Below are positions 43,526 through 61,990 of a DNA stretch of 64,000 nt, in pieces. Numbering within the stretch: position 1 is the stretch's first letter; the number at the start of each line of letters is the position of its first letter. The DNA is taken from IMG/VR virus record IMGVR_UViG_3300042465_006114; one strand, given 5' to 3'. This stretch comes from an uncultured virus (IMG/VR IMGVR_UViG_3300042465_006114). Its lineage: Duplodnaviria; Heunggongvirae; Uroviricota; Caudoviricetes. The notes below the pieces were generated by a model. That model had not been told where the DNA came from and made no database searches. It saw only the letters and a program-made list of their open reading frames with translations. A program made the position numbers and the translations under genes.

Positions 43526-44836
43526 TTATTTCAATTGTTGTCCAGCTCTTTTCAAAGCATCTTTCCAGCTTTCGCCATCTTTACGAATTTTTTTTGCTAA
43601 AACCATAACTCCACCTCTGTTGCCTTTTTTTACCTCTGTACCAGATTCAGCTTTTTTCATTAATTTAACTTTTCCAGCTACCTTGTTACCAACTTCTTTA
43701 GCTTCTGACTTACTATAAACTTTGCCATATTCTTTTTGATACTTCGGTTTAACTCGCTTTCCTTCATAATTCTTAGCTACTACTCTGGAAAGTCTTTCAA
43801 AGTTTGATATTCCACCGCCCTCTTTAAAGTTTCTTTTTCCTTTGTAACCAGTTCGGTTTGGTTTTTTCTTTGCATAACGTACTTCGTAATCTTCATTGTG
43901 GTTAACGTGTTTTCTTTCGTTTCTCCACGCACCATTCATACTTGAACGCAAAAGTTTAAAATCTTCTGAATCAATTTTTCCGTTATGGTTCATATCAATA
44001 CGCTTTTGATTTCCGACTAACGCACCACCATTTTTATAAATTGTTTCAACTTCTGAAATGTCAATTGTGCTAGGTTGTACTCCAGAACCAATTTTGCCAA
44101 ATTCTATAACCTTTAATTTATTTTCAGATTGTGAAAAAACCTTAACAAGTTTGCCATTTTTTAAAACAACGTTTTTATCTTCAAAGTTTGGATACCTAAC
44201 AGGTGTTGTGATTTTTTTAGCTCTGCTAAATAAACTACCTCCAAACGCTTTTTTTTCTTCCATAAATTCATACGCACTAGCGTTATGTTTTTCTGCTAAT
44301 TCTTGATTAGAAAGTTTCTTTGTAGGCATTGCTGGTTTCCCAACTCGAAGTCTATTGTCATCTGACATATCAATATCTTCCTCCATACCAATTCCACCAC
44401 CAGTTTCAAAAGGTAGTGGTGGTTGTTCATCTCTTTCTCCAGTAGATAAATCTATGTAAACAATTTTACCTTTTTTATCTTTTACTTTCTGAATATTTCC
44501 AGAAATAGTTTTTACAAACGTATCTCCTACTTCAATTCCGTGTGCTTGTAAAGAACCACCTTTAGCGTAAACACCAGATTGGAAGTCGCCACCTAATTCG
44601 TATTTAAAACTTTCGTTTGGATTTTCTATTCCCATAGCTTTTAATGCTCTTTTAGAAACTACTTTGTATTTTTTTTTGTCATCATAATCGTTCAACAAAT
44701 CTACTGCATCTTCTTTAAATTCAAATCCAGTTTCAGCTCTTTTAGTGTCTAAATTTACAACGTAAAAATTGTAAGCATCTACATCTTTATTATAAATATC
44801 TTTTCTTATTTGCTCTTTGGTTCTGCGAGTTCTCAT
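43526..44836 (-). CDS. Basic polyprotein segmented by hydrophobic-x-x-GG motifs
   Basis: YELGG, YAKGG, FETGG, YKNGG, FKEGG; EF-hand-like DMNHNGKIDSED. Confidence 0.8.
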   Translation of the reverse strand: MRTRRTKEQIRKDIYNKDVDAYNFYVVNLDTKRAETGFEFKEDAVDLLNDYDDKKKYKVVSKRALKAMGIENPNESFKYELGGDFQSGVYAKGGSLQAHGIEVGDTFVKTISGNIQKVKDKKGKIVYIDLSTGERDEQPPLPFETGGGIGMEEDIDMSDDNRLRVGKPAMPTKKLSNQELAEKHNASAYEFMEEKKAFGGSLFSRAKKITTPVRYPNFEDKNVVLKNGKLVKVFSQSENKLKVIEFGKIGSGVQPSTIDISEVETIYKNGGALVGNQKRIDMNHNGKIDSEDFKLLRSSMNGAWRNERKHVNHNEDYEVRYAKKKPNRTGYKGKRNFKEGGGISNFERLSRVVAKNYEGKRVKPKYQKEYGKVYSKSEAKEVGNKVAGKVKLMKKAESGTEVKKGNRGGVMVLAKKIRKDGESWKDALKRAGQQLK

Positions 44837-44857
44837 AGTGTTTTTTTTTATTAATTT

Positions 44858-44880
44858 AAAGGGGTTTTTACACCCCCTTT
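44858..44880. terminator. Intergenic hairpin
   Basis: AAAGGGG...CCCCTTT. Confidence 0.5.
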
Positions 44881-44895
44881 TATTGTTTAATTTAA

Positions 44896-47277
44896 TTATC
44901 TAACGTTGAAAACATATAAATCAGAATTGTAGTATATGTAAGCGTAATCATCTTCTAACGCATCTGCTAATTTATCATAATCAACTCTTACAAAATTTGC
45001 TTTAGCAAAACTTTCAGCATCATATAGTCCTTGTTCTTCTACTAAAAAGTAATAAGGGTCGCTTAATCCCTCATACCAATTATCGTAGTATTCATCATAA
45101 ACCATACTTTTTGCCAAATCTAGTAATTCTTCTTTAGTTTCATCACTTGCATCTTCGTATTCGTCAACATTTAAACCAGCTTCTTCAATGATTCTATTAC
45201 CGCCATCTTCGCCAATAATGTCATCTACATAGCTATCAGCCATTTCTTGCGACAATAATCTTCTATCTGTTTCAGAAACATCTAAATAATATTGAAAGTC
45301 ATTAAAACTTTCTATTCCAGTATCATCTACCAATTGTTCAGCAAAATCTACTGCACTATCGTATTTTCCAACAAATTCCTCAACCGCACTAGCACTATAT
45401 TGACTAACTACATCTTGAACTACCTCCAATGGTAAATCATTTTGTTTTGCTAAATCAATCATTTCATATAATTCTTCAAAATCTCTTTTACCCATATATT
45501 CTGAATACATACTACTTGGAACATATTCTACATCGTGGATAGCATATTCTTCAACTCCCCAACCAGTTAATAAATCTTGGATTGCATCCATTAATTCATC
45601 AGCATCGTCATAATCGGCTAAATCCAACCATTCTCCAATTAATCTACCATTATTATAGGCTTCTAAATTTGCAACGTAAATTCTCGGTGTTTCCATACTT
45701 CCTCCAGCCATAAATTTTCTTGCTCCTTTGTAACCTTTTCTACTCGCTCTTGGTTTTGCATAACGTACTTCGTAATCTTCATCGTGATTAACGTGTTTTC
45801 TTTCGTTAGTTACAGAACCACCTTTATTATATTGACCAGCTCTAATGTGGTCTAATAATGCAAACTTTACATATTTTGGTAATTCAGTATATTTTGTATT
45901 TACTATTTTATCAATATCTAAATACATAAATCCAACATCAGTTCCCATTGATGATTTTTTTTGCTTTGTTGTTCTTTTTGATTCATTATACAAATCTTCT
46001 TCAAATCCAATTTTTTCTCTATGGTCTGTTAAAAAATGATATTTTTGGTCATAATTCCAATCTTTCCAAACTTCATCTGCACTTTTACCTTCGTAGTTAT
46101 TTGGTATTCCGCCACCAGTTGCAAAATGTTGAGCTGGGTTTCCTAATGCTTCTGTAATCATATATGATTGTTCAGAACCTTGTGGAAGTCCACCCCCAGC
46201 CATAAACATTTCTCCACTTGACATTGCACCAGTTTCTCCAACTAATCCAGTATATCCAGTATTACTAAAACCATCTAAAGGTACACCAGCATTTAACCCT
46301 CCATCTCCAGCTCCAGTGTGTCCAGCTAAATCAACAACAACCGTTCCGCCTAATGCAAATCTTCTGTTACCACTATAACCAGTTCTACTTGGTCTTGGTT
46401 TAGAATATCTTACTTCGTAATCTTCTGAATGATTAACATTTTTTCTATCTCTCATTAAAGACGATTTTGGTCTGCCACTTGAAAAGAATCCACCACCAGC
46501 ATATTTTACATTTGCATCTTCTTTTAACATTTCTGCTGGTTGCGTACCATTGCTTTTTACCATTCTTAATGTAAAGGCATCAACATCTCCACCTTCGGCA
46601 TATACTTGACTTTGAAAATTTCCAAATGTAGGGTCGGTTAAATACGCACCATTTTCTAATAAAGGAGCGTTTTTAGGATAATTTGGAGCAAGTCTATCAG
46701 AGTGCCTATCTCTATTTTCATAATATTTTCTACCTAACTTATTGTTAAAAGTACCATATTGATTAGAAGTTTCCCCAGAGTGAGTTACAGTTCTTGCACC
46801 TCTTGGTTTTGCTTTTCTTACCGCATCTCTTTTAATATCAGTTCCAGAAATACCAGTAAGTTTTTGTTTTTCTTTTTGACTTCTTACAAGTTTAGTTAAT
46901 TTGTCAAGTTCGGTTTCAACAGTCTTGCTTAAATCCTTACTATCCTCTTTCATCATTTTACTTGCTCTTGCTCTTGCTTCATTCCAGCTCTCTCCTTCTT
47001 TACGAATTTCTTTAGCCAACGACATTGCAGTACGCTTTGGCTTTCTGGTTTGACTTGGTTTAGCACTAGAAGTTTTTTTTACTGGAGCAGACTTTACCGC
47101 TTCGGGCATTTTTTCTTTTGCTTTTGCAATAAAGTTATCTAAAGGTTGTTCCACCTTTTTATTCATTTCACTATCGGAAAAGTTTTTTGTTACATTTTTA
47201 ATTTTATCTAAAAATGATTTTTGGTCAGCAGTTAATTTGCTTTGGTCAATTGAACTGAATTTTTGTTTAATAGTCAT
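44896..47277 (-). CDS. Polyvalent protein with C-terminal ArdA-like antirestriction domain
   Basis: PRIYVANLEAYNNGRLIGEWLDL...EEYAIHD...VDYDKLA; 7 GG motifs in the N-terminal part. Confidence 0.8.
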   Translation of the reverse strand: MTIKQKFSSIDQSKLTADQKSFLDKIKNVTKNFSDSEMNKKVEQPLDNFIAKAKEKMPEAVKSAPVKKTSSAKPSQTRKPKRTAMSLAKEIRKEGESWNEARARASKMMKEDSKDLSKTVETELDKLTKLVRSQKEKQKLTGISGTDIKRDAVRKAKPRGARTVTHSGETSNQYGTFNNKLGRKYYENRDRHSDRLAPNYPKNAPLLENGAYLTDPTFGNFQSQVYAEGGDVDAFTLRMVKSNGTQPAEMLKEDANVKYAGGGFFSSGRPKSSLMRDRKNVNHSEDYEVRYSKPRPSRTGYSGNRRFALGGTVVVDLAGHTGAGDGGLNAGVPLDGFSNTGYTGLVGETGAMSSGEMFMAGGGLPQGSEQSYMITEALGNPAQHFATGGGIPNNYEGKSADEVWKDWNYDQKYHFLTDHREKIGFEEDLYNESKRTTKQKKSSMGTDVGFMYLDIDKIVNTKYTELPKYVKFALLDHIRAGQYNKGGSVTNERKHVNHDEDYEVRYAKPRASRKGYKGARKFMAGGSMETPRIYVANLEAYNNGRLIGEWLDLADYDDADELMDAIQDLLTGWGVEEYAIHDVEYVPSSMYSEYMGKRDFEELYEMIDLAKQNDLPLEVVQDVVSQYSASAVEEFVGKYDSAVDFAEQLVDDTGIESFNDFQYYLDVSETDRRLLSQEMADSYVDDIIGEDGGNRIIEEAGLNVDEYEDASDETKEELLDLAKSMVYDEYYDNWYEGLSDPYYFLVEEQGLYDAESFAKANFVRVDYDKLADALEDDYAYIYYNSDLYVFNVR

Positions 47278-47292
47278 AATCTGTTTTTTTTT

Positions 47293-48723
47293 TTAAAATA
47301 TGTTGTCTAAATCATCTAAAAAGGAAAGGTCATCTTCCACTTTTGGTTTTGTTACTTTAACTGGTTTTGGCTTCTCTACCTTAACTGGTTTTGGTTTTTC
47401 AATTGGAACTGGTTTTGGTTTTTCAACCTTAACTGGTTTTGGTTTTTCAACCTTAACTGGTTTTGGTTTTTCTACTTCAACTGGTTTGGGTTTTTCTACT
47501 TCAACTGGTTTAAAAGAATCTTCTAATATTTCACGATTTAATGATACCCTATCAATATCAGCATCTTTTTCATTAAAAACAGACCAATCTAATTCTGGCT
47601 CTACAAAAGTATCATATTGTTCTACTAATTTTTGTAAAATTTCAGAATAACTTTCATCATCTCTTATATAAACTTGTGTTGTATAGGTTGCTCCATCAGT
47701 AATCACATTAAAATTTAATTTTCGTGTACTTGTTTTTAATAAGCGAAAATAATTTGATATAAGAACCGATAATTCAACAATACAAAATGTTTTTATTTCT
47801 AAAACTCCTTCGCTTGGTGGGTAAACAATTAATTCTACATATTTCACTTCTTGCTTTGCAACAACTGGTGCTATTTTTAAAACTGGCTCTACTTCTTCAA
47901 CAACCTTTTTAGCTCTTGGTTTTCTTTCTGGTTTTTCAACTGCTGGTTCTTGTAGCAATTCTATTTGCTCGTTTACTGCCTTATTAACCGATAATAACAA
48001 AGTTTGAACACCTTTAAATAAATCTTCATTAACCTCTTTAATTTTATTAATTTCGTTACCTCTTAAACGCAACATAGTATCAATAAAAACATCCTTTTGT
48101 GATTTTATAGTAAGGTCTTTTTCCGCATTGACAGAATCAAACATTAATTCAACTTCTTCTTTTGTTGGTCTTGGCTCTATTACAGTTATGTACTCTGAAA
48201 AATCATTTGCATCTACCAAAGGAATAACCATATCAGCATCATACTTTCCAGCTTGGAAATTATCATTGATTTTACTATTAATTTGTTCTTCTGTTAATCT
48301 ACTTCCATATAAAGATTTATAATCGTTGTTTACGTTAGTTGGATTAAACAATAAAGGCGTTGGCATATTCCATTGTGCGTATGTGTTTACTACAATACCT
48401 AATACAACATACTTCAATCCATTATACCTAACTAAATCTCCAGAATGAAGTTTTGTTTGATATAAATAATCCGAACCGTATTGATTATACAAAAAAAGCA
48501 ATTGTTCTTGGGTATAAGCATTAAAAGGTCTAAATCCTTTAAATTGTTCAATATTTTTAAAATTAAACGCTTGAATACTATCTCCAGTATTTATTTTTTG
48601 AGGACTTGATTTTTCTACAAATAAAACAGTTGTATATAATTTACTAAAATCTGAAATTTTAGCTAAAGTCATATACGATGTATTTGAACCCCCCATTTTT
48701 ATACTAATTCTATCTAAATTCAT
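47293..48723 (-). CDS. Hypothetical protein with C-terminal PVKVEKPK repeats
   Basis: ORF in operon with the MoxR module. Confidence 0.75.
   Translation of the reverse strand: MNLDRISIKMGGSNTSYMTLAKISDFSKLYTTVLFVEKSSPQKINTGDSIQAFNFKNIEQFKGFRPFNAYTQEQLLFLYNQYGSDYLYQTKLHSGDLVRYNGLKYVVLGIVVNTYAQWNMPTPLLFNPTNVNNDYKSLYGSRLTEEQINSKINDNFQAGKYDADMVIPLVDANDFSEYITVIEPRPTKEEVELMFDSVNAEKDLTIKSQKDVFIDTMLRLRGNEINKIKEVNEDLFKGVQTLLLSVNKAVNEQIELLQEPAVEKPERKPRAKKVVEEVEPVLKIAPVVAKQEVKYVELIVYPPSEGVLEIKTFCIVELSVLISNYFRLLKTSTRKLNFNVITDGATYTTQVYIRDDESYSEILQKLVEQYDTFVEPELDWSVFNEKDADIDRVSLNREILEDSFKPVEVEKPKPVEVEKPKPVKVEKPKPVKVEKPKPVPIEKPKPVKVEKPKPVKVTKPKVEDDLSFLDDLDNIF
47338..47510 (-). repeat. 24-bp tandem coding repeat (PVxVEKPK, about 7 units)
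   Basis: Visible in DNA and protein. Confidence 0.85.
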
Positions 48724-48726
48724 TTT

Positions 48727-50301
48727 TTATAGTATTAAAGTATTTAATATGTTTAATAATTTTTCTCTCTCCTCGATTATATCATCAGCATCTTTCGGTG
48801 TGTCTAGCATAATCTCCACTCGTAATTTTTCCTCGTATTGCTTTTTAGTCAAACTTCCGCTATCCAACAATTTTTTTAATTCTGCTGGACTTTGTTTTTG
48901 AAATTCTTTAGTTGGCGACAATACATTGGTAATTGAGCTTCTAATATATCTTTTAATTTCGCTTTCGGATTTGCCATTATCTTTTTCTCTTTTAATAATG
49001 TCTTGCAACACTTTTCTAGGAGTATTAGATAACTGCATCTGAATATAATCCAAAACAGAATAGAATTTTTCAATTACTTTTTTTTCCATATCTAAAGATT
49101 CTATATCATCCCCAGCATTAACATCCATATTAGCAAACAACATCAATTTTTTATTGACTACTTGTGATGGAAATGCTCCAACACTTATTTGATAGCTTAC
49201 ATAGTTTCTAACCATTGGCAAAATATCTCTCATAAATGTTGTTGGGTCAAGTGTACCAGTTGTATCAAATCCACTTTTATCATCTCCACACATAAATTTA
49301 TACCAACCAACAGTTGAATTAGCCAACCAATATCTATAAAATCTTGTGTCAGAAGAAAATACTGCAATCTTATTTAAATCAATAGTTTCTCCGTAATTTT
49401 TCAACATAAACATAGTATTGAAATCTCTATCTTTACCATTATCTCTATTTGCCCAATAAGCAAATATTCTAACCCTTACACCAGCTTTTTCTAAAATCCT
49501 TGATAATAGTATATTTGGAAGTGAACGTATAATCATTTGTTCTGGCTCAATACTACCTAATCCACCAGTAGAAATATATAAATCTACATACGGTGCAATA
49601 CCGCCACCTTTTTTTTCTCTATACGCATAAACCTTTTTAGTTGTCGTAGCATATCTCAATTTATTTCCTTTGCACTCGTTTATAACTTTACCTTCTGAAT
49701 CGTATGGTAAAATTAATTTACTTTGCAAATCTTCTCTTAAAAGTACATCGGTGCAACTTTCGGCTATCTTTGTAGTTCCTTCTTGCCTTCTTTCAACAAC
49801 AACTTCTCTACCATCGTGATTATAATAAAAATAATCCAAACCTTTAAATTCTCCTTTAAAAACATCGTCTGGTAAAATCAATTTACCTTCTTCTTTGGAA
49901 TAATATTCTACTGGTCTAATCAACCCTTTACTTGCTTGTGCAAAAGAAAATATCCCTAATGGTTTTTCTGTAAATTTAATTCTTGAAGCTTTAAAATCTC
50001 CACCTAAATCTAACTTGGCATTTATGTTTGAATAAACTTGCTCTACTTTTGTTAATAGGTCTTGGTCTAAAAAACTCCCTAATCCAGAATTAATATCAAA
50101 TTGCTCTGCAAAAGATTTTGAAGAACCGCTTTTATAGCCAGACCAGTTATAATCTTTACCTCTGATTGGGGAGCGACCTACAACTCCACTCTCCTCGTAA
50201 ATAGTTCTTAATTTATCTTTTTTTACAATATCCAAACCTTCCTCTATAAATTTAAAAGGGTCAAATCCAAATACGATATAATTATCTTTTGCTTTTGGCA
50301 T
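48727..50301 (-). CDS. VWA-like partner of the MoxR ATPase
   Basis: VDLYISTGG...LEKAGVRVRIFA...LKNYGE resembles a degenerate VWA core; coupled to the AAA gene. Confidence 0.5.
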   Translation of the reverse strand: MPKAKDNYIVFGFDPFKFIEEGLDIVKKDKLRTIYEESGVVGRSPIRGKDYNWSGYKSGSSKSFAEQFDINSGLGSFLDQDLLTKVEQVYSNINAKLDLGGDFKASRIKFTEKPLGIFSFAQASKGLIRPVEYYSKEEGKLILPDDVFKGEFKGLDYFYYNHDGREVVVERRQEGTTKIAESCTDVLLREDLQSKLILPYDSEGKVINECKGNKLRYATTTKKVYAYREKKGGGIAPYVDLYISTGGLGSIEPEQMIIRSLPNILLSRILEKAGVRVRIFAYWANRDNGKDRDFNTMFMLKNYGETIDLNKIAVFSSDTRFYRYWLANSTVGWYKFMCGDDKSGFDTTGTLDPTTFMRDILPMVRNYVSYQISVGAFPSQVVNKKLMLFANMDVNAGDDIESLDMEKKVIEKFYSVLDYIQMQLSNTPRKVLQDIIKREKDNGKSESEIKRYIRSSITNVLSPTKEFQKQSPAELKKLLDSGSLTKKQYEEKLRVEIMLDTPKDADDIIEEREKLLNILNTLIL

Positions 50302-51668
50302 TATTTAATTTTGTTTATGTTTTTAGCATCAAATGCTCTAATCAATAAAGTTGCTTCTGTTTTATCCTCTGGCGAATCTAACGAATCTAATGGTTTTAAA
50401 TTTTTATTATCTACTAAATCGAAAAATTCGTTTACTCTTACATCTGCTTCTAAAACACTTCTTTGTTGCTCTGTAAACAAATCTAAAAATGTTTTAACTG
50501 CAATCTGTAAAGTTTTCGGACTTTTTATTCTTTTATCTCCTTGTCTTTCATTAAGCCTAAAAGCAATATAGGTATCTCTCATAGAAATCATTAACCTTTG
50601 AGAAACAAAAGCTCTACTTGAAAAATTATTATCCTCTACTGCGGTTCTTAATTTGAATAAGAAATTAAATATAAAAGTGAAATTTGCTAGTTCATCCCCA
50701 ATCTTAATATTGGACATTAAATTATCTAATTCGTATTGTGGGTCAATAATCAATTCGTATGTACTTCCAGCAAACCTATCTTGTAAAGATAAATCTTGTT
50801 TAAAATTCGCTTCATAGTTCACATCAGCTTCATTCAATAAAGAGTTTCCAGTTGCAATAACAAATACGTTTCCTTTTGTTATTACTTGTCCTCTACCGTT
50901 TGTAATTTCTGGTCTTATCTCTAAACCCTCTTGTGTTCTTTCGGAAGGGTCTTTAATTTTTGACAAACCATCATTTAATACCCCAGCGGTATTTGGGTCA
51001 AGTTTAGGTAACTCGTCTAATAATAAAACTGCACCAGAAAAATATTTTCCAGTTCTTTTATTCATTTCTTTTCTTGCATCTGTATATCCAAATGCATCAA
51101 TTAATCTACCCTCTTGATAACCCTCAATAGTTTGCCCACCAACTATATCCAAAGGAGAAGTAAATTGATTACAGTTCAAAGTTATCAATTTATAGTTTAA
51201 GGCATTTGCTACTTCTTTTGCAATAAAAGTTTTTCCAGTACCAGCACCACCATAAAGGTAAATATTGTTTCCAGCTTCAAAATCAGAAAGCATCAAATCA
51301 AAAATCTTTCTTTTCTTCCCATCTCCAGTTTTAACAACAACATTTTGCCAGTTAATAATCTGAACGGTTTGTGTTTTACCAATAAGCTCCAATACAGTTG
51401 AATCTAAATTATTTTTACCAATTTTGGTATCTCTAAATTTATCATCTACAATATCTTCAACTTGTTTCTTATCAACACCAGCTTTTGCTAACTTGTCTAT
51501 TGATTGATTAAACTCTCTTACCGCAAATAAAATATCATTATTAATACCTTCTACTCCAGAGGAAGTTTGCAAGGCATTTAACTTTCCTAATTGACCTTTT
51601 GCATCATCTCTTGTTTCTTGTGATAATGTTGTGTCGTTAATTACGATTTCTAATTCTTCTCTTGTCAT
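50301..51668 (-). CDS. MoxR/CbbQ/CobS-type AAA+ ATPase
   Basis: NIYLYGGAGTGKT, LLLDE, VIATGN, QDLSLQDRF, SQR. Confidence 0.9.
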   Translation of the reverse strand: MTREELEIVINDTTLSQETRDDAKGQLGKLNALQTSSGVEGINNDILFAVREFNQSIDKLAKAGVDKKQVEDIVDDKFRDTKIGKNNLDSTVLELIGKTQTVQIINWQNVVVKTGDGKKRKIFDLMLSDFEAGNNIYLYGGAGTGKTFIAKEVANALNYKLITLNCNQFTSPLDIVGGQTIEGYQEGRLIDAFGYTDARKEMNKRTGKYFSGAVLLLDELPKLDPNTAGVLNDGLSKIKDPSERTQEGLEIRPEITNGRGQVITKGNVFVIATGNSLLNEADVNYEANFKQDLSLQDRFAGSTYELIIDPQYELDNLMSNIKIGDELANFTFIFNFLFKLRTAVEDNNFSSRAFVSQRLMISMRDTYIAFRLNERQGDKRIKSPKTLQIAVKTFLDLFTEQQRSVLEADVRVNEFFDLVDNKNLKPLDSLDSPEDKTEATLLIRAFDAKNINKIK

Positions 51669-51671
51669 AAT

Positions 51672-52694
51672 TTATATATTTTCTAATTCTGTTATGAAAT
51701 TACTTGTTATTAATTTTTGTTTTTCAAATCTACTCAAACTTTCGGATAAACCAACTTGTGTGATTATAAAATCTAATTCATTTGGCGACAACAAACTTAC
51801 AAAAGATTTTACAGATTTTTCTGTTGGGAATTGTCTTTTAATATCTTCTCTATCAGTATGAAGCATATCTACAATAGCATTTAACACTCCATCTATTTTT
51901 TTATCTGAATTACTTTGTGGCTCTGGAAAATCTGGTAATTCAAAATCCATATCATCTGGCTCTCCTTCTCCTTGTTCTCCACGCTTTTCGTAGTCAATTT
52001 TATCCTTTAATTCTTTGTCTTTATAACCTTTCGTAAAATCGTTTTCGGCTTCTCCTTTTTCAACCTTGTCTAAAAAATCTTCTAAGTCAATTTCATCTCC
52101 AGTATTATCAGATTGACCGCTTTGAGATTTTCTTTTTTGGTCTTTTTTTAATTCGTCTAATAATTTTTTAATATCTTCTGACGACATTCCTTCTCCTTCT
52201 CCTTCTCCTTCTCCCTCTCCTTCTCCTTCTCCCTCTCCTTCTCCTTCTCCTTCTCCTTCTCCTTCTTCTTTTTCTTTTTCTTTTTCCTCTTGCTTCTTTT
52301 TTTCTTCCTCTAATTCATCTTTCAATTTTTCAAGTAGCATTTCATTAAAAACTTTAGCAACTATTTCATATTTCTCGTTAAAGAAATTTAAAACATCTGG
52401 TAGATTATTGAATTTTAAATCTGCATAATCATCTCTAAATTTATAATCCCCTTCTTCAAAATTATTTATAAGAAAATGCATTTCTGTATCAAAATTATCA
52501 CTTATAATTTCCATTGATGAATAAAAAGAACAACCTATTGGATACCTAACAAAAGTCATTTTTTGTCTAAAAAACACTTCATCAGAGGTAATTTTTAAAT
52601 CATCATTTTTATTTTTTTTACTACTATCAAAATAATAGTAATCTGGAAACAACGGAACTAATCCTAACTCTTTTATTTTTTCTTGAATATTCAT
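51672..52694 (-). CDS. Acidic protein with (EG)n linker
   Basis: EGEGEG tract, as found in CobT/VWA-associated linkers. Confidence 0.75.
   Translation of the reverse strand: MNIQEKIKELGLVPLFPDYYYFDSSKKNKNDDLKITSDEVFFRQKMTFVRYPIGCSFYSSMEIISDNFDTEMHFLINNFEEGDYKFRDDYADLKFNNLPDVLNFFNEKYEIVAKVFNEMLLEKLKDELEEEKKKQEEKEKEKEEGEGEGEGEGEGEGEGEGEGEGEGEGMSSEDIKKLLDELKKDQKRKSQSGQSDNTGDEIDLEDFLDKVEKGEAENDFTKGYKDKELKDKIDYEKRGEQGEGEPDDMDFELPDFPEPQSNSDKKIDGVLNAIVDMLHTDREDIKRQFPTEKSVKSFVSLLSPNELDFIITQVGLSESLSRFEKQKLITSNFITELENI
52188..52266 (-). repeat. 6-bp tandem repeat encoding (EG), about 13 units
   Basis: (CCTTCT/CCCTCT)n on the plus strand. Confidence 0.9.
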
Positions 52695-52696
52695 AT

Positions 52697-55600
52697 TTAT
52701 AAAATTCCTCCTAAATCAAATCTTGAATCATTAGACAATGCGTTAAACTCGTATGCATCTGCAAACTTAATTTGATTGCTATCAAAAGCACAATAAGAAA
52801 GCGATGCGTTTTCCAATCCACCATAAGGTTTTGTTGGTATGTATTCGTAAAAAATATAACCATCATAAGTTGTGAACACTTTTACATATTTTGTAAAAGA
52901 CTGCCACAATCTAATTATCTGCCAAGCATAAACCTCTGTGTCTTGTGTAAATCCACTATGTGAAGTTATGTTAGTCCAGAAATCAAAATCTCCAATATTA
53001 TAGTTTACTCTTAAAAAAGTAAGGTATTCTCTAATAGGATATTTTTCAACACCAAACCTTGAAAAATCAATTGGGTTCTTAATATCAATAAAGCATCTCA
53101 ATAAAAAATTACCTCTATTTGGATTTAACTTTTTAAGTATTTCCGAATCCACTCCAGCTTTATCCGCCCTATCTTCCCAACTTGTAGCAAAAAACTCCGA
53201 CATCTCTCTCTTGACTGCAAAATAATGTGCGTTATTGGTTTCGTATGTTTTCCAATTTACAAATAAAACGTTTGTTCCGTGAAATACTGGTTGTGGTTCT
53301 TTTGTAATTGGATTAATAACTTTCGATACTCCAGCATAACTATCGTTTAAATATGCGGTTTCCCAATCTCCAAAAAACGATTTAAACTCTGGCGTTCTAA
53401 CATTAAAATATTCTATTTCTGTTAATTGTGATTTTAAAGCGTTTATAGAGGTCATATCTGTTTCTTCGTATTGTTTATCAAAACTTGAAATCTTTAACCC
53501 ATATACACCTATTACTCTTTCCTCAATAGATTTTAAACTCATTTCAGCATCGTTAAGTTTTCTCAACTTCAAAATAAATGAATTAATCTCTCTTTGGTAA
53601 AAAGCAACTTCTTCATTTGATAGTATTGGTTTTTTTAAATCCAACTCTTTTGCTAAATCTGAAATCCTTTGCGATAAGTATTTACGTTCTAACTCAAAAT
53701 TACGTTTTGGTTTTTCGGTTTTGCTTGGCTTTGGTTCTTCAATAATTTCTTTTGGAGCATCATAAAGATTAAATTCATCCCAATTATATTTATCTGTAAA
53801 TTCTTTTCTACTATAAATAAAACCAACAAGGTCTGTATAATTTAATAAATTTCTTAAAAAAGTAACGTTACCGTATGTTTTACCATTTTGGTCAACTATT
53901 TTAAATTCAAAATAATCTCTTTTTGGAAATAGTGAATAATAATCTTTTAAATGGACTAGCAATTGTACAGCACTATAAATTCCAAAGTCAGAAGTGAATT
54001 GTCCATCTTCCGAAACTGGATACAGTTTCCAAACACTTACTTTTTCTTTTGATACTTCTTCATAATCATCATACATACCTATCTTTTGTAAAAACTTTAA
54101 TGTATTTGGGTCTGCTGGATATAATCCTTGACCATCAATAACAGTCAGCCTATAAACAGTAGGCGGTTCTAATTTATAAAATTCTTTAAAGTAACTTCCT
54201 TTTATGTCTAATATTCTTATTTCTTTTTCTAAAATCCAACCCCCTTTTTTAATAAATTCTAAAATTAATTTTTTAATTTCAACATCTTCATCTGTAATAC
54301 TTTCTTCATCAATTATAGGCGTTGAAGTTGATTGAGTTTTTTTCCAGTCTAAATAACCAAAAATCAATAATTTTGAATTATCAGAAATCATCAAATCTTC
54401 TTTAGGAATACCTAAACTATATTTATAAGACCGAAGTGTAACAACATCTCCAGTATCCGTATTTACTATGTCAAAATCTAATGTTTTATCGCCTTTACTC
54501 CAATCATTTATATTTACTAAGGTAAGATTATTATTCTCAATTACACTATCAATTTGCTTAAACATATCAATTTCTCCAGAAGTAAACTTACTAATAGTTT
54601 TTTCGGTTTTACTTGATATTCCTAAATCAGAAGCAAAAATTTCTTTTCTTTTTGAAGCATAAAATTCGCTTTTTCCATTATTATAAACTACAAAATCATC
54701 AGTAAATATTTCTATAAAAATATCTTCAATAGACAATAATTCCCTATCTCCGTAATTTTTATCAATTGGAATACCTATTTCAGTAAGTTTTTGCATTACC
54801 ATATCCCTTAAAGCTAAATCAGCTCCAATCCATATTTTAGATTGTTCTAATTCTTCTTTAATAAGTGTTTTACCAGTTTGTTCTTTGGTTTTACTTGGGG
54901 TAGCCTTTGGAGTTCTTTTAGCTCTTTCTTTTGTAGTTTTTATTTCTAAATCAACTAAACTACCATCAGCATTTCTTATTTCATTATCATCAAAATCAAA
55001 ATAAACATTTAACTTTGTATTTTTATCTTTATTTTCAGTACCATACATTCCAAGTTCTCCATAAACAAAAGGCATCATTAATCCAATAACGTCTTTACCT
55101 AAAGTAAAAGATGGGTAATAGGTAAAAATTAAAGCTCTTTTATTAGTTTGAAAACTAACATTCATAAATGTACTTCCGCCAAGCTTAACTAATGAACTTA
55201 AAAAGTTAATCATTAAATCTGGAAAAACAGCCATTTTTTCATCATTAATTTTAAATACAACTTCTTTATTATAAGAATAGTTTGAAGCTACTTTAAAGTA
55301 AGTTAATAACTTTAAAATATCAATATATACAACCCTTTTAACTTCTATTTCTTTAGGTATAACTTGTGCGTAATTTGGGTATTTAACATCAAGTTTAATG
55401 AAACCATCTGGAAACACCTCTTTTAAAGATTTTGAACTTAATTTTTCTTTTTTATAAACGCCTTTAAAATCTCTTTCGTCAGAAGGTATGGTTAATAAAA
55501 TATGTGCGTTAGTAGCGGTAATTCCATTTTCGTCAAAGTTAATACCAGTCATTGCTGGTCGTAATGGCTCTGTACCTAAAAACGGTTTTAAAATTTCATT

Positions 55601-56515
55601 TAACCCATCATCACTTGGACTTGCATCCCATTCTACCTTTTTTGGTAATCTAATATTTTTAAAAGAATCTGGTATTTCGCTCCAATTATTAACTGTAACG
55701 TCAGTAGCACCACCTTTTGCATAACTAAAAACAATAGAACCTCCATCAGCAAATAAACCAGTTTCAGCACCAACTACTCCATCAGCATCCATATCTATTA
55801 CATCATTGTAATTGTTTAAATCCCTTGCTGGTGTATTTCCTTTTTTTGAATCTCTAACAAGACTTACTTTACGAACTACTCCACCGTGTTTTAATCCAGC
55901 TCTTTTAAGTAAAGTATAATATTTTGGGTTTTCGTACAAATGGTCTTTTACGATTTTCATTTGTTCACGTTTACTAGAAGTATGTTCGCTTTCAGCTTTC
56001 ATACCTAAGTCAACTTGTGTTTGTAATTCTTTTACAGAAACTTTATGTTTTTTAGCAATTTGAGTAAGTGTCATTCCTTCGGCTAAATGTCCTCCAGTAA
56101 TGTGTTTGTATATTTCGTGGTCGGTCATTGTTTTACCACCATACTTATAACTTGCTCCAGTACGTTTTATGTTTTTAGGTATATCGCCACCTTTTGCAAA
56201 TGAAACTCCACCACCTTTTTCGTTTATTGCAGATAACACTTCTCTGTTAGTCATCATTTTACCATTAAACTCATTTTTGGTGTTGTCTGATACTGCTGGT
56301 GCGGTAATAACAACTTCTCCACCTTGCATTTCCAATGCTTGTCCAGTAGATTTGTTTACTGCTTTAATACCACCCTCTGCGTGAGTTTTACCTACTAAAT
56401 ATCCGCTTAAAGTTCCTTTGTTATGTATAATAGTCTGCCCTTGTCTTTTACCAACGAGTACTCCGCCAGTAGGCGTTTGTTCTGCTTTATTTTCTGTTAG
56501 GGTTGATTTTTTCAT
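52697..56515 (-). CDS. 1272-aa polyvalent protein: GG-segmented N-terminus, sliding-clamp-like domain, C-terminal ART-PolyVal-like domain
   Basis: GKTHAEGGI...EMQGGEVVI; ESEHT...DHLYENPKYY; RPAMTGI...ATNAHIL...YPNY (beta-clamp-like); VRTPEFKSFFGDW...VFHGT...YDG...FDSNQIK. Confidence 0.7.
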   Translation of the reverse strand: MKKSTLTENKAEQTPTGGVLVGKRQGQTIIHNKGTLSGYLVGKTHAEGGIKAVNKSTGQALEMQGGEVVITAPAVSDNTKNEFNGKMMTNREVLSAINEKGGGVSFAKGGDIPKNIKRTGASYKYGGKTMTDHEIYKHITGGHLAEGMTLTQIAKKHKVSVKELQTQVDLGMKAESEHTSSKREQMKIVKDHLYENPKYYTLLKRAGLKHGGVVRKVSLVRDSKKGNTPARDLNNYNDVIDMDADGVVGAETGLFADGGSIVFSYAKGGATDVTVNNWSEIPDSFKNIRLPKKVEWDASPSDDGLNEILKPFLGTEPLRPAMTGINFDENGITATNAHILLTIPSDERDFKGVYKKEKLSSKSLKEVFPDGFIKLDVKYPNYAQVIPKEIEVKRVVYIDILKLLTYFKVASNYSYNKEVVFKINDEKMAVFPDLMINFLSSLVKLGGSTFMNVSFQTNKRALIFTYYPSFTLGKDVIGLMMPFVYGELGMYGTENKDKNTKLNVYFDFDDNEIRNADGSLVDLEIKTTKERAKRTPKATPSKTKEQTGKTLIKEELEQSKIWIGADLALRDMVMQKLTEIGIPIDKNYGDRELLSIEDIFIEIFTDDFVVYNNGKSEFYASKRKEIFASDLGISSKTEKTISKFTSGEIDMFKQIDSVIENNNLTLVNINDWSKGDKTLDFDIVNTDTGDVVTLRSYKYSLGIPKEDLMISDNSKLLIFGYLDWKKTQSTSTPIIDEESITDEDVEIKKLILEFIKKGGWILEKEIRILDIKGSYFKEFYKLEPPTVYRLTVIDGQGLYPADPNTLKFLQKIGMYDDYEEVSKEKVSVWKLYPVSEDGQFTSDFGIYSAVQLLVHLKDYYSLFPKRDYFEFKIVDQNGKTYGNVTFLRNLLNYTDLVGFIYSRKEFTDKYNWDEFNLYDAPKEIIEEPKPSKTEKPKRNFELERKYLSQRISDLAKELDLKKPILSNEEVAFYQREINSFILKLRKLNDAEMSLKSIEERVIGVYGLKISSFDKQYEETDMTSINALKSQLTEIEYFNVRTPEFKSFFGDWETAYLNDSYAGVSKVINPITKEPQPVFHGTNVLFVNWKTYETNNAHYFAVKREMSEFFATSWEDRADKAGVDSEILKKLNPNRGNFLLRCFIDIKNPIDFSRFGVEKYPIREYLTFLRVNYNIGDFDFWTNITSHSGFTQDTEVYAWQIIRLWQSFTKYVKVFTTYDGYIFYEYIPTKPYGGLENASLSYCAFDSNQIKFADAYEFNALSNDSRFDLGGIL

Positions 56516-57366: not shown

Positions 57367-58650
57367 TTATTTTACTAATCTATCAATAATTACTTTGAAT
57401 TGCTTTGCAATACCTTCCCACTTCATTGCGGAAACTTTATTAAAAGCGTTTTCTATTTTTTGCTTAACTTGTTCTTGCAGTTCTGGTTCTTCGTTTGATA
57501 ATCCATAAACAACTTCGCATAAAGTTTTTACTTCCATTGGGTTTGTTGTAAGTCTTATTTTTTCAAAGTCATTTACAAATACCGATTGTTGGCTAAACAT
57601 AAAATTCAAAGTGTTTTCTCCGTTGTCTGTTATCTCTGTAATAGAAGTGTGTTTTGGACAAACCACAAGTGTTTTAGTAGCCATAGCTTCTGTTATTGTT
57701 AATCCCCAACCTTCCGCAGTTGTAGTGGTAATAAAGCAATCAAATGAATTGTAGATTTTATTTAGTTCTTCTGGAGTGCAACCTTTATTTTCTGAAAAAT
57801 CTTTTGGAACAATTACATCTTTACCTACTTCCAGTCCTACTCTATCGCAAAGTCTATAAATGTTTATCCCCATAGGGTCTGTTGGATTACAATGAAGATA
57901 TAACAAGGCATCAGCACCAGTAGTGTGTTTGAACATAGCAAATCCCATAATAAGACTTCCGAAATCTTTTCTAACTTGGTTTCTGTTTACGCTTCCGAAT
58001 ACAAATGTATTTTCTCTTTCAGCACCAAATAATTCAACTTTAGCTAATCCTTTGTTTAATTCCGAATAAGGATAAAAATCGGTTGTATTAGTTCCGTGCG
58101 GTATAATTTTAATCTTTTTGAATTGTGTGTCAGAAAGTAACGGTTTCATCACTCCTTTGGCGTATTGCGTATAAGTAACTACTTCATCGAAAAATGATAA
58201 TACTTTTAAATCAGCCATTCTTGGCTCACTATCAATTGGGAAATAAATTATCGACTTAAAGTTAGGTCGGTTTTCTTCTCTCTTTTTATTTTTTACTTCT
58301 TTTAGATTATCAGCCATTGCATTAATAACTTCTACATCTTGTAAAAAAAACAAAGCATCAAAATCGTTTTGATAAATTATTTGAAGTAACTCAATTCGTC
58401 TATAAACATCTCCTCTAGTGTCTTTGTCGCCAGTTTGCAAAGCTGGTATTACTTTTACGTTTGGTAAGTAATCATAAACTGCTTTACTCTTATCATTAAT
58501 AGCAAAAATGACAATACTTAAATTTTTGTCTTTCGCCCATTCATTTACAAGTTCTTTAGCAACTGCTCCAAATCCAGTTGTGCAATTCCAATCAGCATAT
58601 ACTAATAATGATTTTTGTGTTTCTACTTTTTTGCGGTGTACGACTTTCAT
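57367..58650 (-). CDS. GT4-family glycosyltransferase
   Basis: TGFG, IPHG, NRNQVRKD, EGWGLTITEAMA. Confidence 0.9.
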   Translation of the reverse strand: MKVVHRKKVETQKSLLVYADWNCTTGFGAVAKELVNEWAKDKNLSIVIFAINDKSKAVYDYLPNVKVIPALQTGDKDTRGDVYRRIELLQIIYQNDFDALFFLQDVEVINAMADNLKEVKNKKREENRPNFKSIIYFPIDSEPRMADLKVLSFFDEVVTYTQYAKGVMKPLLSDTQFKKIKIIPHGTNTTDFYPYSELNKGLAKVELFGAERENTFVFGSVNRNQVRKDFGSLIMGFAMFKHTTGADALLYLHCNPTDPMGINIYRLCDRVGLEVGKDVIVPKDFSENKGCTPEELNKIYNSFDCFITTTTAEGWGLTITEAMATKTLVVCPKHTSITEITDNGENTLNFMFSQQSVFVNDFEKIRLTTNPMEVKTLCEVVYGLSNEEPELQEQVKQKIENAFNKVSAMKWEGIAKQFKVIIDRLVK

Positions 58651-58994
58651 AATTTGTTGTTTTAAGTTTCTGGTTGTAAATATACTATTTATTAAATAAA
58701 TAATATTTGATTGTATGAATTAATGCTTTTATATAAAAGTATATCCATATTAAAACTGTTATCCAAGACATCACTATTAATATAGATAAAGTCAAATTAT
58801 AATAAAATTTTATACTTTTATGAAAACTAAATTCTTGTAAAATTTTTTGACTTTGTTCAAATAATCCTATTGTGTTTGGTTCATTTAAAATTTTTAAAAT
58901 GTAAATTCCAATTGGATATGCTACAAAGCATCCTAATAAATAAATTTGTAATCCGTTCATAATTTTTGTTTTTAAGTTTCTGGTTGTAAATATA
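58646..58994 (-). repeat. About 39-bp direct repeats (58646-58684 and 58956-58994) flanking a small membrane gene
   Basis: TTTAAGTTTCTGGTTGTAAATATA core identical in both copies. Confidence 0.85.
58685..58960 (-). CDS. Two-TM protein
   Basis: Hydrophobic segments. Confidence 0.6.
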   Translation of the reverse strand: MNGLQIYLLGCFVAYPIGIYILKILNEPNTIGLFEQSQKILQEFSFHKSIKFYYNLTLSILIVMSWITVLIWIYFYIKALIHTIKYYLFNK

Positions 58995-59508
58995 TGTTAA
59001 TTATTTTATTTTCTTTTTCGTATTCTAATCTTTTTAAGTATGCTTCTTCTTCGGTTTTAAACATTCCCAAATTTATTTTTTTGTGATTTATTTGAATTTG
59101 ACTTAACCATCTTTTATCTCTTGAAATATAAGAAACTCCTCTATAAACACTTGAAGTTTTTTTACCTATAAATCTATGACAATTATTTTCTGATGCTGAA
59201 ACCCATTCTAAATTTTCAATTCTATTGTCTTTTCGGTTTAAATTTTTGTGATTTACTTGTTTTTTATTATTTTCATTACTAATAAAAGATTTAGCAATCA
59301 ATCTATGAACTCTAAATAATTTTGTTTTTTTTTCAAAAATTAAGTGAATCAAACAATAACCATCTTTGTCTAAATATTGAGGTATTATTTTTTTTTCATT
59401 TTTAATTCTACCAAAATTACTTACTTGATACAAAATATCAAAACCATCTAACTCTTTCCAAATTTCGCCTTTTATATCTTTGTTAGATATATTTTTATGA
59501 ATTTCCAT
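58972..59508 (-). CDS. NUMOD4-HNH-AP2 homing endonuclease
   Basis: EIWKE...YQVSNFGRIK, VHRLIA, VNHKN...DNRIENLEW, SSVYRGVS AP2-like. Confidence 0.9.
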   Translation of the reverse strand: MEIHKNISNKDIKGEIWKELDGFDILYQVSNFGRIKNEKKIIPQYLDKDGYCLIHLIFEKKTKLFRVHRLIAKSFISNENNKKQVNHKNLNRKDNRIENLEWVSASENNCHRFIGKKTSSVYRGVSYISRDKRWLSQIQINHKKINLGMFKTEEEAYLKRLEYEKENKIINIYLQPET

Positions 59509-60517: not shown

Positions 60518-60519
60518 AA

Positions 60520-61988: not shown

Positions 61989-61990
61989 AG

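Follow-up and report, generated by a model that had tools for sequence, protein, structure and literature searches.

Three large proteins of an uncultured virus of Bacteroidota, encoded in a 64,000-nucleotide stretch of DNA (hereafter, the window), carry many copies of a short Gly-Gly peptide, and this raises the question of whether the peptide marks sites at which the proteins are cut or acts as a tag in proteins that remain whole. The original prediction offered both possibilities, namely, packaged polyproteins cleaved at the peptide or a packaging or docking motif.

A Gly-Gly motif in linkers, at breakpoints, and at termini

The three proteins, p436 (43526-44836), p793 (44896-47277), and p1272 (52697-56515), are encoded on the minus strand and named by their lengths in residues. 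All 18 of the Gly-Gly heptads claimed for them were found at the implied residues: YELGGDF, YAKGGSL, FETGGGI, YKNGGAL, and FKEGGGI in p436; YAEGGDV, YAGGGFF, FALGGTV, FMAGGGL, FATGGGI, YNKGGSV, and FMAGGSM in p793; and FAKGGDI, YKYGGKT, LKHGGVV, FADGGSI, YAKGGAT, and the terminal FDLGGIL in p1272. The canonical motifs of p436 were located at aa 79, 90, 143, 267, and 337, along with a variant, KAFGG, at aa 195-199. The pattern [FY]xxGG occurred 17 times in the 2,501 aa of the three proteins and nine times in the 16,302 aa of the 92 other non-overlapping window ORFs of at least 80 aa each, corresponding to densities of 6.8 and 0.55 per 1,000 aa (ratio, 12.3; Fisher p 1.1e-9). When the residues of each protein were shuffled, the observed count was reached in 0/5000, 0/5000, and 1/5000 trials, and the enrichment over background was strong. 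The peptide is real and widespread; 148 diverse relatives contained 1,031 motif sites against 81 expected.

The full motif comprised eight residues, K-[FYM]-A-x-G-G-[GS]-hydrophobic, with information on either side of GG. Among 1,692 GG sites, position -4 was K in 29%, position -3 was F/Y/M in 62%, position -2 was A in 37%, position +2 was G/S in 34%, and position +3 was V/L/I/F/M in 67%. Codons at the sites differed (GGT/GGC/GGA/GGG and TTT/TAT/TAC), indicating repetition at the protein level rather than the DNA level and ruling out a DNA-repeat origin of the motif. A double motif, GG-DFQSGV-Yxx-GG, was common to p436, p793, and many relatives, and the two copies of such double motifs were 10-11 residues apart.

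AF2 models placed the motifs in low-confidence linkers between small folded modules; the motifs thus lay in predicted disordered linkers and not inside folded domains. In p436, a basic protein (pI 9.7) of five or six small modules, pLDDT was <50 at aa 77-91, 146-152, 198-206, and 269-272 and approximately 50 at aa 331-340, and the predicted folded modules spanned aa 21-70, 95-140, 210-265, 341-398, and 407-436. The module at aa 210-265 was SH3/KOW-like (Z about 6), and p436 matched no Pfam or PHROG family above threshold.

The two relative searches returned 804 and 765 matches in hundreds of clusters. Indels among the relatives of p793 (532 proteins at E<=0.001 among 8,000 scored candidates) started and stopped at motifs, and local alignments to 147 relatives (418 aligned stretches) likewise began and ended there. 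Homologs retained the motif while the intervening modules were inserted, deleted, or swapped. Division of 268 relatives at the motif yielded 2,223 segments in 226 families with many different neighbours, and most of these modules were small (median 67 aa) and outside any Pfam family.

The motif was also present at protein ends. It occurred within approximately the first 20 residues, behind a short leader, in 33 of the 148 relatives, and at least one copy was present in each of the 14 relatives no longer than 300 aa. Among the 120 p1272 relatives listed of 765 matches, 74 ended 2-4 residues past [FYM]xxGG, with endings (IL, KL, TL, and YVRI) in which the +3 residue stays hydrophobic. In p1272 itself, FDLGGIL (aa 1266-1272; 52700-52720, minus strand) is a complete C-terminal motif whose last residue occupies the hydrophobic +3 position. 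The two C-terminal endings are preceded by similar sequences (NDSRFDLGG and NDIRFKNGG), and they perhaps represent one inherited feature of the ART domain, which would weaken the case for a tag.

Domain content of the motif-bearing proteins

The p793 protein consists of a conserved basic N-region (aa 1-225), a variable region punctuated by seven motifs (aa 226-528; 45694-46602, minus strand), and a payload containing an ArdA antirestriction domain (aa 533-670; 45268-45681, minus strand; PF07275, E 2.6e-21; phrog_2059, E 1.3e-19). FMAGG (aa 522-526) precedes the ArdA match, as proposed, and a motif stood directly before ArdA in 24 of 24 aligned sequences. The p1272 protein begins with a conserved 130 aa, followed by motif-bearing linkers and then payload domains; its N-terminal region (aa 1-271; 55703-56515, minus strand) holds four canonical motifs and LKHGG. 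It matched DUF5661 at aa 152-205 (E 3.7e-10) and PHROG clamp-like families at aa 307-430, and the YAKGG at aa 265-269 lies upstream of the latter, in agreement with the original prediction, by 38 aa. An ART-PolyVal-like match at aa 1073-1254 scored 25 bits, under the cutoff of 31.2, and PF18760 was precomputed on many of the 120 listed p1272 relatives. Across these 120 of 765 matches, the N-terminal 130 aa showed 79-100% identity, and the payloads that follow this near-constant N-terminus varied (clamp, N6 methylase, GNAT, and ART). Judged from sequence, the architecture of the p1272 family appears to be that of a delivery domain with cargo. The payload parts of both proteins were motif-free (p793 aa 527-793; p1272 aa 270-1265).

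The three genes had been described as adjacent; instead, four genes on the same strand, kept in synteny (47293-52694, minus strand; p476, p524, p455, and p340), separate p793 from p1272. Of these, p476 has KPKPV repeats, p524 a weak DUF7192 match, p455 is a MoxR/CobS-like AAA+ ATPase, and p340 is acidic with an (EG)n run. None of the four contained a true motif, the sole match being a Walker-A stretch, YLYGGAGTGKT.

With several unrelated effector or anti-defence domains in one polypeptide, as identified in p793 and p1272, and combinatorial domain shuffling between relatives, p436, p793, and p1272 can be assigned to the phage-type polyvalent proteins by domain content. Like the proteins described by Iyer et al. 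2017 (PMC5512222), they combine anti-restriction and host-modifying domains (ArdA and ART-PolyVal) in one polypeptide, and LPD11, RadC-like JAB, and Zeta-toxin domains appear among their relatives, along with the extreme domain shuffling of polyvalent proteins. Polyvalent proteins are predicted in that study to accompany the DNA. They are thought to be the first weapons of a phage on cell entry, and one conserved linear motif at every joint makes their recognition for loading or processing an experimentally simple question. The available text of PMC5512222, searched on cleavage, processing, glycine, and linker, gives no junction motif, whereas one is present at the joints here. The motif was likewise not found in the literature searched with motif peptide strings.

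Loading tag or cleavage site

We favour, at a probability of roughly 0.38, an uncut loading or docking tag over a cleavage site. Each polyvalent protein would pair a conserved part for delivery or anchoring with exchangeable payloads (ArdA, clamp-like, ADP-ribosyltransferase-like, and many small modules), connected through disordered linkers that bear one and the same short linear motif. The motif would serve as a portable, multivalent address, uncut in the particle. Each of its copies would dock onto a site that recurs on the virion interior or on a loading factor, and any motif-flanked module would thereby enter the particle and be delivered alongside the DNA. Modules would exchange freely at the motif because each copy would load the module that it flanks. 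A tag works at N- and C-terminal positions, where a separating cut does not. None of three checks set out originally (enrichment, module swapping, and linker placement) refuted the idea. Of the two possibilities raised, cleavage was not supported by any result, and packaging or docking suited the data at least as well. Because no capsid, portal, or scaffold gene was recognisable in the lineage by Pfam or PHROGs (window and extra ORFs of a 132-kb relative), we infer packaging into virions, as we do the binding of a partner and the absence of cutting.

Encapsulin cargo-loading peptides are short Gly-small-hydrophobic peptides in a disordered tail that dock cargo inside a shell. The complete C-terminal motifs and the disordered context of the motif here show a similar layout; in contrast to encapsulin cargo, however, each protein holds many copies, most of them at internal positions, and no shell protein was recognised. 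A wider proposal, in which the Gly-Gly peptide would serve Bacteroidota viruses generally as a portable code for cargo, necessary and sufficient for loading by multivalent docking and possibly allowing later release, is tentative and rather unlikely. If true, such a code would account for thousands of phage proteins built as motif-flanked exchangeable cassettes and would provide a programmable tag for loading foreign proteins into phage particles.

The strongest alternative, doubtful but of substantial weight, is that the motif is a protease recognition site and that a viral enzyme (candidate p261) or a host enzyme cuts at or just after GG. Cutting would take place either inside the particle, where the N-terminal modular regions would be diced much as propeptides or scaffold are, or after injection, freeing ArdA and other payloads, and the latter is compatible with full-length proteins in virions. 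The presence of a motif in the disordered linkers at nearly all module junctions, including the one before ArdA, is the classic layout of polyprotein cleavage sites, which speaks for cleavage and against a tag; the residue specificity on both sides of GG and the leader-plus-motif N-termini, which resemble clip-off targeting leaders, point the same way. A zincin preferring a hydrophobic P1' residue would suit a cut before the +3 residue. In prohead processing, the motifs have a terminal Glu, and a serine protease of the herpesvirus/T4 type cleaves them. In T4 and giant phages, N-terminal regions of proteins to be ejected carry several copies of a short consensus, as here, and the ejection proteins of SPN3US, including gp245, are cut at several motif sites within N-terminal propeptides (PMC10052503). 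The motif-free payloads here resemble mature domains behind such diced propeptides, and a short N-terminal leader followed by a motif also recalls the capsid-targeting leaders of T4/phiKZ-like phages. Unlike in prohead systems, the motif is based on Gly-Gly and no prohead protease gene was recognisable; searches of the window, and of those ORFs that a 132-kb relative has in addition, detected no prohead protease, capsid, portal, or terminase family.

Substrates of adenovirus protease and of ASFV pS273R are alike in that Gly-Gly with an upstream hydrophobic residue marks the sites, in those systems in virion precursors, and these systems also share a linear genome with inverted terminal repeats. 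Their consensus is (M/L/I)-X-G-G↓X, and its hydrophobic residue takes the P4 position. The spacing here differs, which argues against cleavage of this type: the hydrophobic residue lies three before the first G (P5 if the cut follows GG), one further out, and Ala occupies the would-be P4. The host is bacterial, and no Ulp/adenain-like (GG-type) cysteine protease was found among the 95 window ORFs by Pfam or PHROGs, although a divergent enzyme could escape detection, since many window ORFs match no family.

Other observations weigh against cleavage. No cut was observed anywhere. Complete motifs at the extreme C-terminus and double motifs 10-11 residues apart offer no obvious use for a separating cut. 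Self-cleavage was rejected, as the residue after GG is not consistently a nucleophile (Ser/Thr/Cys). PMC5512222 predicts processing of polyvalent proteins by zincin-type peptidases, possibly after injection, which favours cleavage; the zincin domain is, however, expected there in the same protein (frequently, not universally), whereas Pfam detected no peptidase domain in the three proteins. In 39 long relatives (Pfam, E<=1e-5), the only exception was one RadC-like JAB domain, a type that the same study considers a probable nuclease.

Two window proteins had been put forward as the enzyme. The first, p261 (29144-29929, minus strand), combines a beta-sandwich domain with a downstream M48-like zincin domain carrying HEFSH, and the proposed metallopeptidase fold was confirmed in an AF2 model (pLDDT 91.5). 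The best structural match of aa 110-255 was BepA/YfgC M48 (Z 8.6, rmsd 3.8, 119 aligned), with 3c37 (Z 6.8) next, and H188, E189, H192, E202, E204, and D206 were invariant in 42 sequences. Since p261 gave no Pfam match at E 0.05, its M48-like assignment rests on fold and residues rather than on sequence family. It is the only recognisable protease candidate in the window and, on the modelled structure, could be a protease, which counts for cleavage. The gene was present in 7 of 8 related viral records with motif-rich proteins and in 0 of 2 without, a pattern confounded by shared ancestry, and a predicted complex of p261 with p793 residues 474-540 scored 0.00 in a run without controls, which counts neither for nor against binding. 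The genes beside p261 showed weak peptidoglycan-binding and lysin-like matches, suggesting that it may instead act on the cell wall. The second, the "Cys hydrolase" at 13479-13955 (minus strand), is probably not a motif protease. This LRAT/PPPDE-like Cys-His protein scored 29.4 bits for Peptidase_C97 (cutoff 29.2) and 23.2 bits for LRAT (cutoff 24.3), and it combines an NCEHF motif with a C-terminal membrane helix, which we take to be the signature of LRAT/PLAAT lipid enzymes; it looks like a membrane-anchored LRAT-type enzyme.

Sequence look-alikes of the window motif were found in two cargo proteins of Bacteroides phage crAss001, gp45 and gp47, both detected in virions by mass spectrometry (PMC10172136). 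They include FAEGG, FAYGG, and KAFGGSL, as well as look-alikes of the double motif (GGFQSPVYLQGG in gp47 and GGDFTNGV in gp45). In the same study, gp45 residues 425-552 are described as resolved by cryo-EM as one portal-wing-bound segment; this segment includes FGG-W (aa 425-428) and GGDFTNGV, and the continuity of a look-alike site in the solved virion argues against cleavage. The resolved gp45 segments described there (214-245 and 425-552) are bracketed by look-alike sites, and a word-stem search of the available text found no mention of cleavage or proteolysis. Gel bands of crAss001 virions at 150, 270, and >300 kDa, given in the methods of PMC6235969, are compatible with uncut gp49, gp47, and gp50. 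Enrichment in crAss001 was modest, with F/Y/M at -3 in 3 of 20 GG sites of gp45, 4 of 9 of gp47, and 0 of 8 of gp46, gp49, and gp50 together, and these look-alikes may not be equivalent to the window motif, which weakens their support for a tag. Searches of p436 and p1272 against PDB chains with phmmer gave nothing relevant and no homology to crAss001 cargo, and homology of the p1272 N-terminus to gp45 was rejected (BLASTP E 1.4 at best; hhalign probability 0.25%). In addition, the head genes of crAss001, a tailed phage, are known, whereas none were recognised in this lineage.

It is improbable that the motif is a mere hinge or swap joint, that is, an end-cap and flexible connector with neither a dedicated partner nor a protease, kept since in-frame recombination of modules succeeds best there. 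The coincidence of homology breakpoints with motifs, the many neighbours of the segment families, and the common use of GG as a flexible element agree with such a joint. A hinge, however, has no need for K at -4, F/Y/M at -3, A at -2, or a hydrophobic residue at +3, and the information in the eight residues appears to exceed the needs of a passive connector. The motif is, moreover, retained at N- and C-terminal ends that have nothing to connect; the varying codons leave little DNA homology to guide recombination; and low model confidence at the motif residues indicates that they are not predicted in domain cores. Very improbable is a role as aromatic-glycine "stickers" through which cargo would self-associate into a dense body in the particle or infected cell, as the conserved A at -2 and hydrophobic +3 residue suggest a defined binding groove and the linkers are short rather than long low-complexity stretches, although aromatic and Gly-Gly elements do recur 50-100 aa apart in disordered linkers, about seven per protein, and may resemble FG-type and kinked aromatic segments.

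Lineage and genome context

The lineage is unusual: it is a linear element of 72-132 kb that bears telomere-like inverted repeats and in which no capsid, terminase, or polymerase gene could be recognised. An ORF at 32518-33213, considered as a capsid or packaging gene, gave Atlas search scores of at most 0.83, and a 273-aa P-loop protein matched PDB chains by phmmer at E 0.09 or worse. No tRNA genes were found in the window, and a literature search on this virus lineage returned nothing relevant. Against 50,697 phage records, neither megablast with the region nor tblastn with p436 gave a match, and p1272 produced only short single-domain matches in 10 records. As indirect evidence for delivery with the DNA, DUF5661, found in p1272, is also part of a protein of the head module in Vibrio phage VPs20, encoded between the terminase and a capsid-like gene.

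Three polyvalent proteins and their Gly-Gly motif

The window has a G+C content of approximately 29%, and its genes form two blocks converging near 12 kb. The motif-bearing ORFs p436 (43526–44836), p793 (44896–47277), and p1272 (52697–56515) are all encoded on the minus strand. p793 contains an ArdA domain at aa 533–670 (PF07275, E = 2.6e-21; phrog_2059), and p1272 contains DUF5661 at aa 152–205 (E = 3.7e-10), matches at aa 307–430 to PHROGs with the annotation DNA polymerase or processivity factor, and an ART-PolyVal match at aa 1073–1254 that is below threshold (25 bits; cutoff 31.2). No Pfam or PHROGs family was assigned to p436. This domain set (ArdA, ART-PolyVal, and DUF5661) identifies the three as phage-type polyvalent proteins (Iyer et al., 2017; PMC5512222). 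Their long relatives further carry LPD11, DUF2958, and RadC-like JAB and Zeta-toxin domains; in a Pfam scan of 39 long relatives, 29 gave no family at E ≤ 1e-5. Across the best 120 of 765 matches, the N-terminal 130 residues of p1272 were 79–100% identical and were followed by a beta-clamp (DNA polymerase III), N6 DNA methylase, GNAT, ART-PolyVal, or other domains. Judged from these alignments, the layout of the p1272 family is a constant, putative delivery or anchor domain combined with exchangeable payloads.

Four genes on the same strand separate p793 from p1272: p476 (47293–48723), with KPKPV repeats (KPKPVxVE); p524, which matches DUF7192 weakly; p455, a MoxR/CobS-like AAA+ ATPase; and p340 (51672–52694), an acidic protein with an (EG)n run. 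The gene order p1272, acidic protein, AAA+ ATPase, p524, repeat protein, ArdA protein, and p436-like protein is conserved in related viral contigs and in a 132-kb relative. The KPKPVxVE repeat protein ranges from 311 to 680 aa across relatives, and both it and the acidic protein remain syntenic between the polyvalent genes, as do the MoxR/CobS-like AAA+ ATPase and its partner.

All 18 heptads that the original prediction had read as a probable protease-cleavage code were found in the three proteins, and the proposed enrichment over background was confirmed. The core [FY]xxGG occurred 17 times in p436, p793, and p1272 (2,501 aa) versus nine times in the 92 other non-overlapping window ORFs of at least 80 aa (16,302 aa), corresponding to 6.8 versus 0.55 per 1,000 aa (Fisher p = 1.1e-9). 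When the residues of each protein were permuted 5,000 times, the observed number was reached in none of the permutations of p436 (5 observed versus a mean of 0.31), none of p793 (7 versus 0.51), and one of p1272 (5 versus 0.63). Sixteen of the 17 sites were confined to three stretches, namely the whole of p436, p793 aa 226–528, and p1272 aa 106–269, and the remaining site formed the final seven residues of p1272; [FY]xxGG was absent from the payload parts (p793 aa 527–793 and p1272 aa 270–1265). Because the codons at the sites differ, the motif is a protein-level feature.

An exhaustive HMMER search with p436 detected 804 cluster representatives at E ≤ 0.001, and the 150 matches listed correspond to 148 proteins (two rows repeat earlier ids), one of which is 100% identical to the query. 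These 148 relatives contained 1,031 [FY]xxGG sites in 105,976 residues versus 81 expected from composition, mostly spaced 50–100 residues apart, and F or Y occurred three residues before 49% of the GG dipeptides versus 9% expected. A profile built from all 1,692 GG sites, with the aromatic residue not required and the first Gly counted as position 0, showed K at −4 (29%); F (26%), Y (27%), or M (9%) at −3; A at −2 (37%); D, K, N, or T at −1; G-G at 0 and +1; G (22%) or S (12%) at +2; and V, L, I, F, or M at +3 (summed, 67%). The full motif was thus K-[FYM]-A-x-G-G-[GS]-hydrophobic. With the N-terminal 530 residues of p793 as query, 532 proteins scored E ≤ 0.001 among 8,000 scored candidates, and the best 120 of these carried 3 to 13 copies of [FY]xxGG each (mean 7.8). 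We conclude that the sequence is a genuine short linear motif, recognized by a putative partner. Polyvalent proteins are already known; the literature searched by motif peptides yielded no conserved junction or terminal motif in them, and the text of PMC5512222 covered by keyword search contains no junction or Gly-Gly motif.

Motif positions relative to module borders

When p793 was aligned with 23 relatives, whole-cassette insertions and deletions started and stopped at the motif, and FMAGG preceded ArdA in 24 of 24 sequences, as the original prediction had noted for p793 itself. Local alignment of p436 with 147 relatives produced 418 aligned stretches, whose ends clustered at aa 73–90, 145–156, 193–198, 265–282, and 331–348; these clusters coincide with the motif positions and a variant, KAFGG. 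Both data sets bear out the expectation that homologs keep the motifs while the cassettes between them change. Splitting 268 relatives after each motif gave 2,223 segments (median 67 aa), and those of at least 25 aa yielded 226 families (123 of them singletons) with many different neighbors. The family count is approximate, since single linkage merged 1,063 segments into a single family.

The AlphaFold2 model of p436 (61-row alignment; mean pLDDT 73) predicted small, confident modules at aa 21–70, 95–140, 210–265, 341–398, and 407–436, and aa 212–267 weakly resembled SH3/KOW/Tudor barrels (Z 5–6). Segments with pLDDT below 50 (aa 77–91, 146–152, 198–206, and 269–272) overlapped four of the five canonical motifs, and the fifth (aa 337–341) lies in a ten-residue block with a mean pLDDT of 50. 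Since the motifs fall in low-pLDDT segments between modules, the objection that they might lie inside folded domains fails for p436 as modeled.

A basic linker of approximately 35 residues, NERKHVNHxEDYEVRYAKPRxxRxGYKGxRKF, always lies between two Gly-Gly motifs (p436 aa 300–341; p793 aa 272–311 and 488–526); it is the best-conserved piece of these proteins, yet has low model confidence. A basic helical element is common to the p436 C-terminus (43526–43600; LAKKIRKDGESWKDALKRA) and p793 aa 84–110 (LAKEIRKEGESWNEARARA), where it falls in the conserved N-region.

Docking tag or cleavage site

We favor, at a probability of slightly under 40%, an uncut motif that acts as a multivalent loading or docking tag. 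The main alternative, which we rate only somewhat less probable, is a protease site, possibly used after injection. Cleavage would suit a motif that stands at nearly every junction and directly before payloads, in disordered linkers and with specificity on both sides. In 33 of the 148 relatives, the motif follows a short leader and lies within approximately the first 20 residues, and such N-termini resemble clip-off targeting leaders. Moreover, ejection proteins of SPN3US undergo cleavage at several consensus sites in long N-terminal propeptides (PMC10052503), and processing of polyvalent proteins, possibly after injection, was predicted by Iyer et al. (PMC5512222). Three observations speak against cleavage or in favor of a tag. 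First, 74 of the best 120 of 765 p1272 relatives end 2–4 residues past [FYM]xxGG, 46 as FDxGG plus two residues and 28 as FKxGG plus four, and the +3 residue stays hydrophobic; because both endings follow similar sequences, they may share one origin. Second, at least one motif was present in 14 of 14 relatives of 300 aa or less, some of which begin with Met at the −3 position, where miscalled starts are possible. Third, double motifs 10–11 residues apart have the conserved spacer GG-DFQSGV-YxxGG.

The Bacteroides phage crAss001 offers a comparison, provided that its sites are equivalent to the window motif. Mass spectrometry detected gp45, gp46, gp47, gp49, and gp50 in its virions (PMC10172136). 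The cargo protein gp45 contains the motif-like sites FDTGG, FAEGG, FAYGG, KAFGGSL, and GGDFTNGV, and gp47 contains GGFQSPVYLQGG and three further sites where −3 is F, Y, or M. Such a residue occupies −3 in 3 of 20 GG sites of gp45, 4 of 9 of gp47, and 0 of 8 of gp46, gp49, and gp50 jointly. Packaging of p436, p793, and p1272 in virions is suggested by their membership in the polyvalent family, by the motif they appear to share with crAss001 cargo, and by the presence of DUF5661 in a head-module protein encoded by Vibrio phage VPs20.

In the crAss001 particle, gp45 was resolved on the portal wing as a single segment, aa 425–552, and in the tail barrel at aa 214–245 (PMC10172136). The portal segment begins with FGG-W (its aa 425–441 are FGGWLNTQGGDFTNGV) and includes GGDFTNGV, and being inside one resolved segment, the Gly-Gly bonds at these two sites are intact. 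Motif-like sites flank both aa 214–245 (aa 206–209 and 259–263) and aa 425–552 (aa 424–427 and 558–562). If these were cut, the two pieces would need no bridge through the portal; PMC10172136 treats gp45 as one continuous chain and contains no wording for cleavage or proteolysis. Virion gel bands of 150, 270, and >300 kDa (PMC6235969) are compatible with uncut gp49, gp47, and gp50. On our analysis, these data would argue against in-particle cutting in that phage, and cutting after injection remains compatible with them.

The search for an enzyme gave one visible candidate. Neither an Ulp/adenain-like nor a prohead protease family was detected by Pfam or PHROGs in any window ORF. The proposed zincin, p261 (29144–29929), does exist, although no result connects it with the motif. 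It contains HEFSH, and H188, E189, H192, E202, E204, and D206 are invariant in 42 sequences; 946 homologs were found at E ≤ 0.001, the best 120 of which are 240–264 aa long. Its predicted model (pLDDT 91.5) has an N-terminal half formed by a beta-sandwich that resembles carbohydrate-binding modules, and aa 110–255 best matched the M48 peptidase BepA/YfgC (Z 8.6, rmsd 3.8, 119 aligned), followed by 3c37 (Z 6.8); Foldseek alone gave no match at E ≤ 0.001. p261 was present in seven of eight related viral records with motif-rich proteins, the exception being a fragment rated 35% complete, and missing from both records without them, a co-occurrence that may only reflect shared ancestry because all records are kin. 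Its neighbors have weak peptidoglycan-binding and lysin-like matches.

The second enzyme suggested originally, a Cys hydrolase encoded at 13479–13955 (minus strand), is unlikely to be a protease. This LRAT/PPPDE-like Cys-His protein with a membrane helix scored just above the cutoff for Peptidase_C97 (29.4 bits; cutoff 29.2) and below that for LRAT (23.2 bits; cutoff 24.3). Its NCEHF motif and C-terminal hydrophobic helix are what we take to be the signature of an LRAT/PLAAT lipid enzyme, and its substrates may be lipids, not proteins. The ORF adjoins an NHL/beta-propeller protein (12292–13542).

Apart from tag and cleavage, the motif could serve as a hinge and swap joint that has no dedicated partner, a reading that we consider unlikely. 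Self-association of the motifs as aromatic-glycine stickers is highly improbable, and other readings share the remainder.

The carrier element

The window and its relatives are a lineage of 72–132 kb linear elements with inverted terminal repeats. Two related records were rated 100% complete, one of 72,545 bp, classed with inverted terminal repeats and with small ORFs only at its ends, and one of 84.7 kb. A contig of 132,486 bp that was binned with a Sediminibacterium MAG showed synteny with the window over approximately 110 kb, and both of its ends bear an 11-base tandem repeat in four inverted copies. Terminase, portal, capsid, and DNA polymerase families were found neither in the window (Pfam and PHROGs) nor in 15 ORFs of the 132-kb relative (Pfam), and the window has no ORFs longer than 450 aa beyond the polyvalent genes and their neighbors p476, p524, and p455. 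The lineage has several lysin genes and many membrane proteins, and may be a virus type with unrecognized structural genes.

A 273-aa protein (34865–35686, minus strand) carrying the Walker A sequence GRKGCGKT and the Walker B sequence LLLIEDV had no family, and a PDB sequence search gave nothing; it could be a small packaging-type ATPase. A 231-aa beta-rich protein (32518–33213, minus strand), the best-conserved ORF at 84% identity in the 132-kb relative, could be a capsid candidate; an Atlas search with it gave nothing.

The minus-strand regions 16907–18327 and 57367–62617 contain an APS-kinase-like gene beside a sulfotransferase gene, along with genes for several glycosyltransferases and one hexapeptide transferase, which suggests that a glycan, or the particle itself, is modified by the element. 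Several HNH/NUMOD homing-endonuclease-like genes occur at dispersed positions: 58972–59508 and 63561–63902 (minus strand) and 8016–8297 (plus strand).
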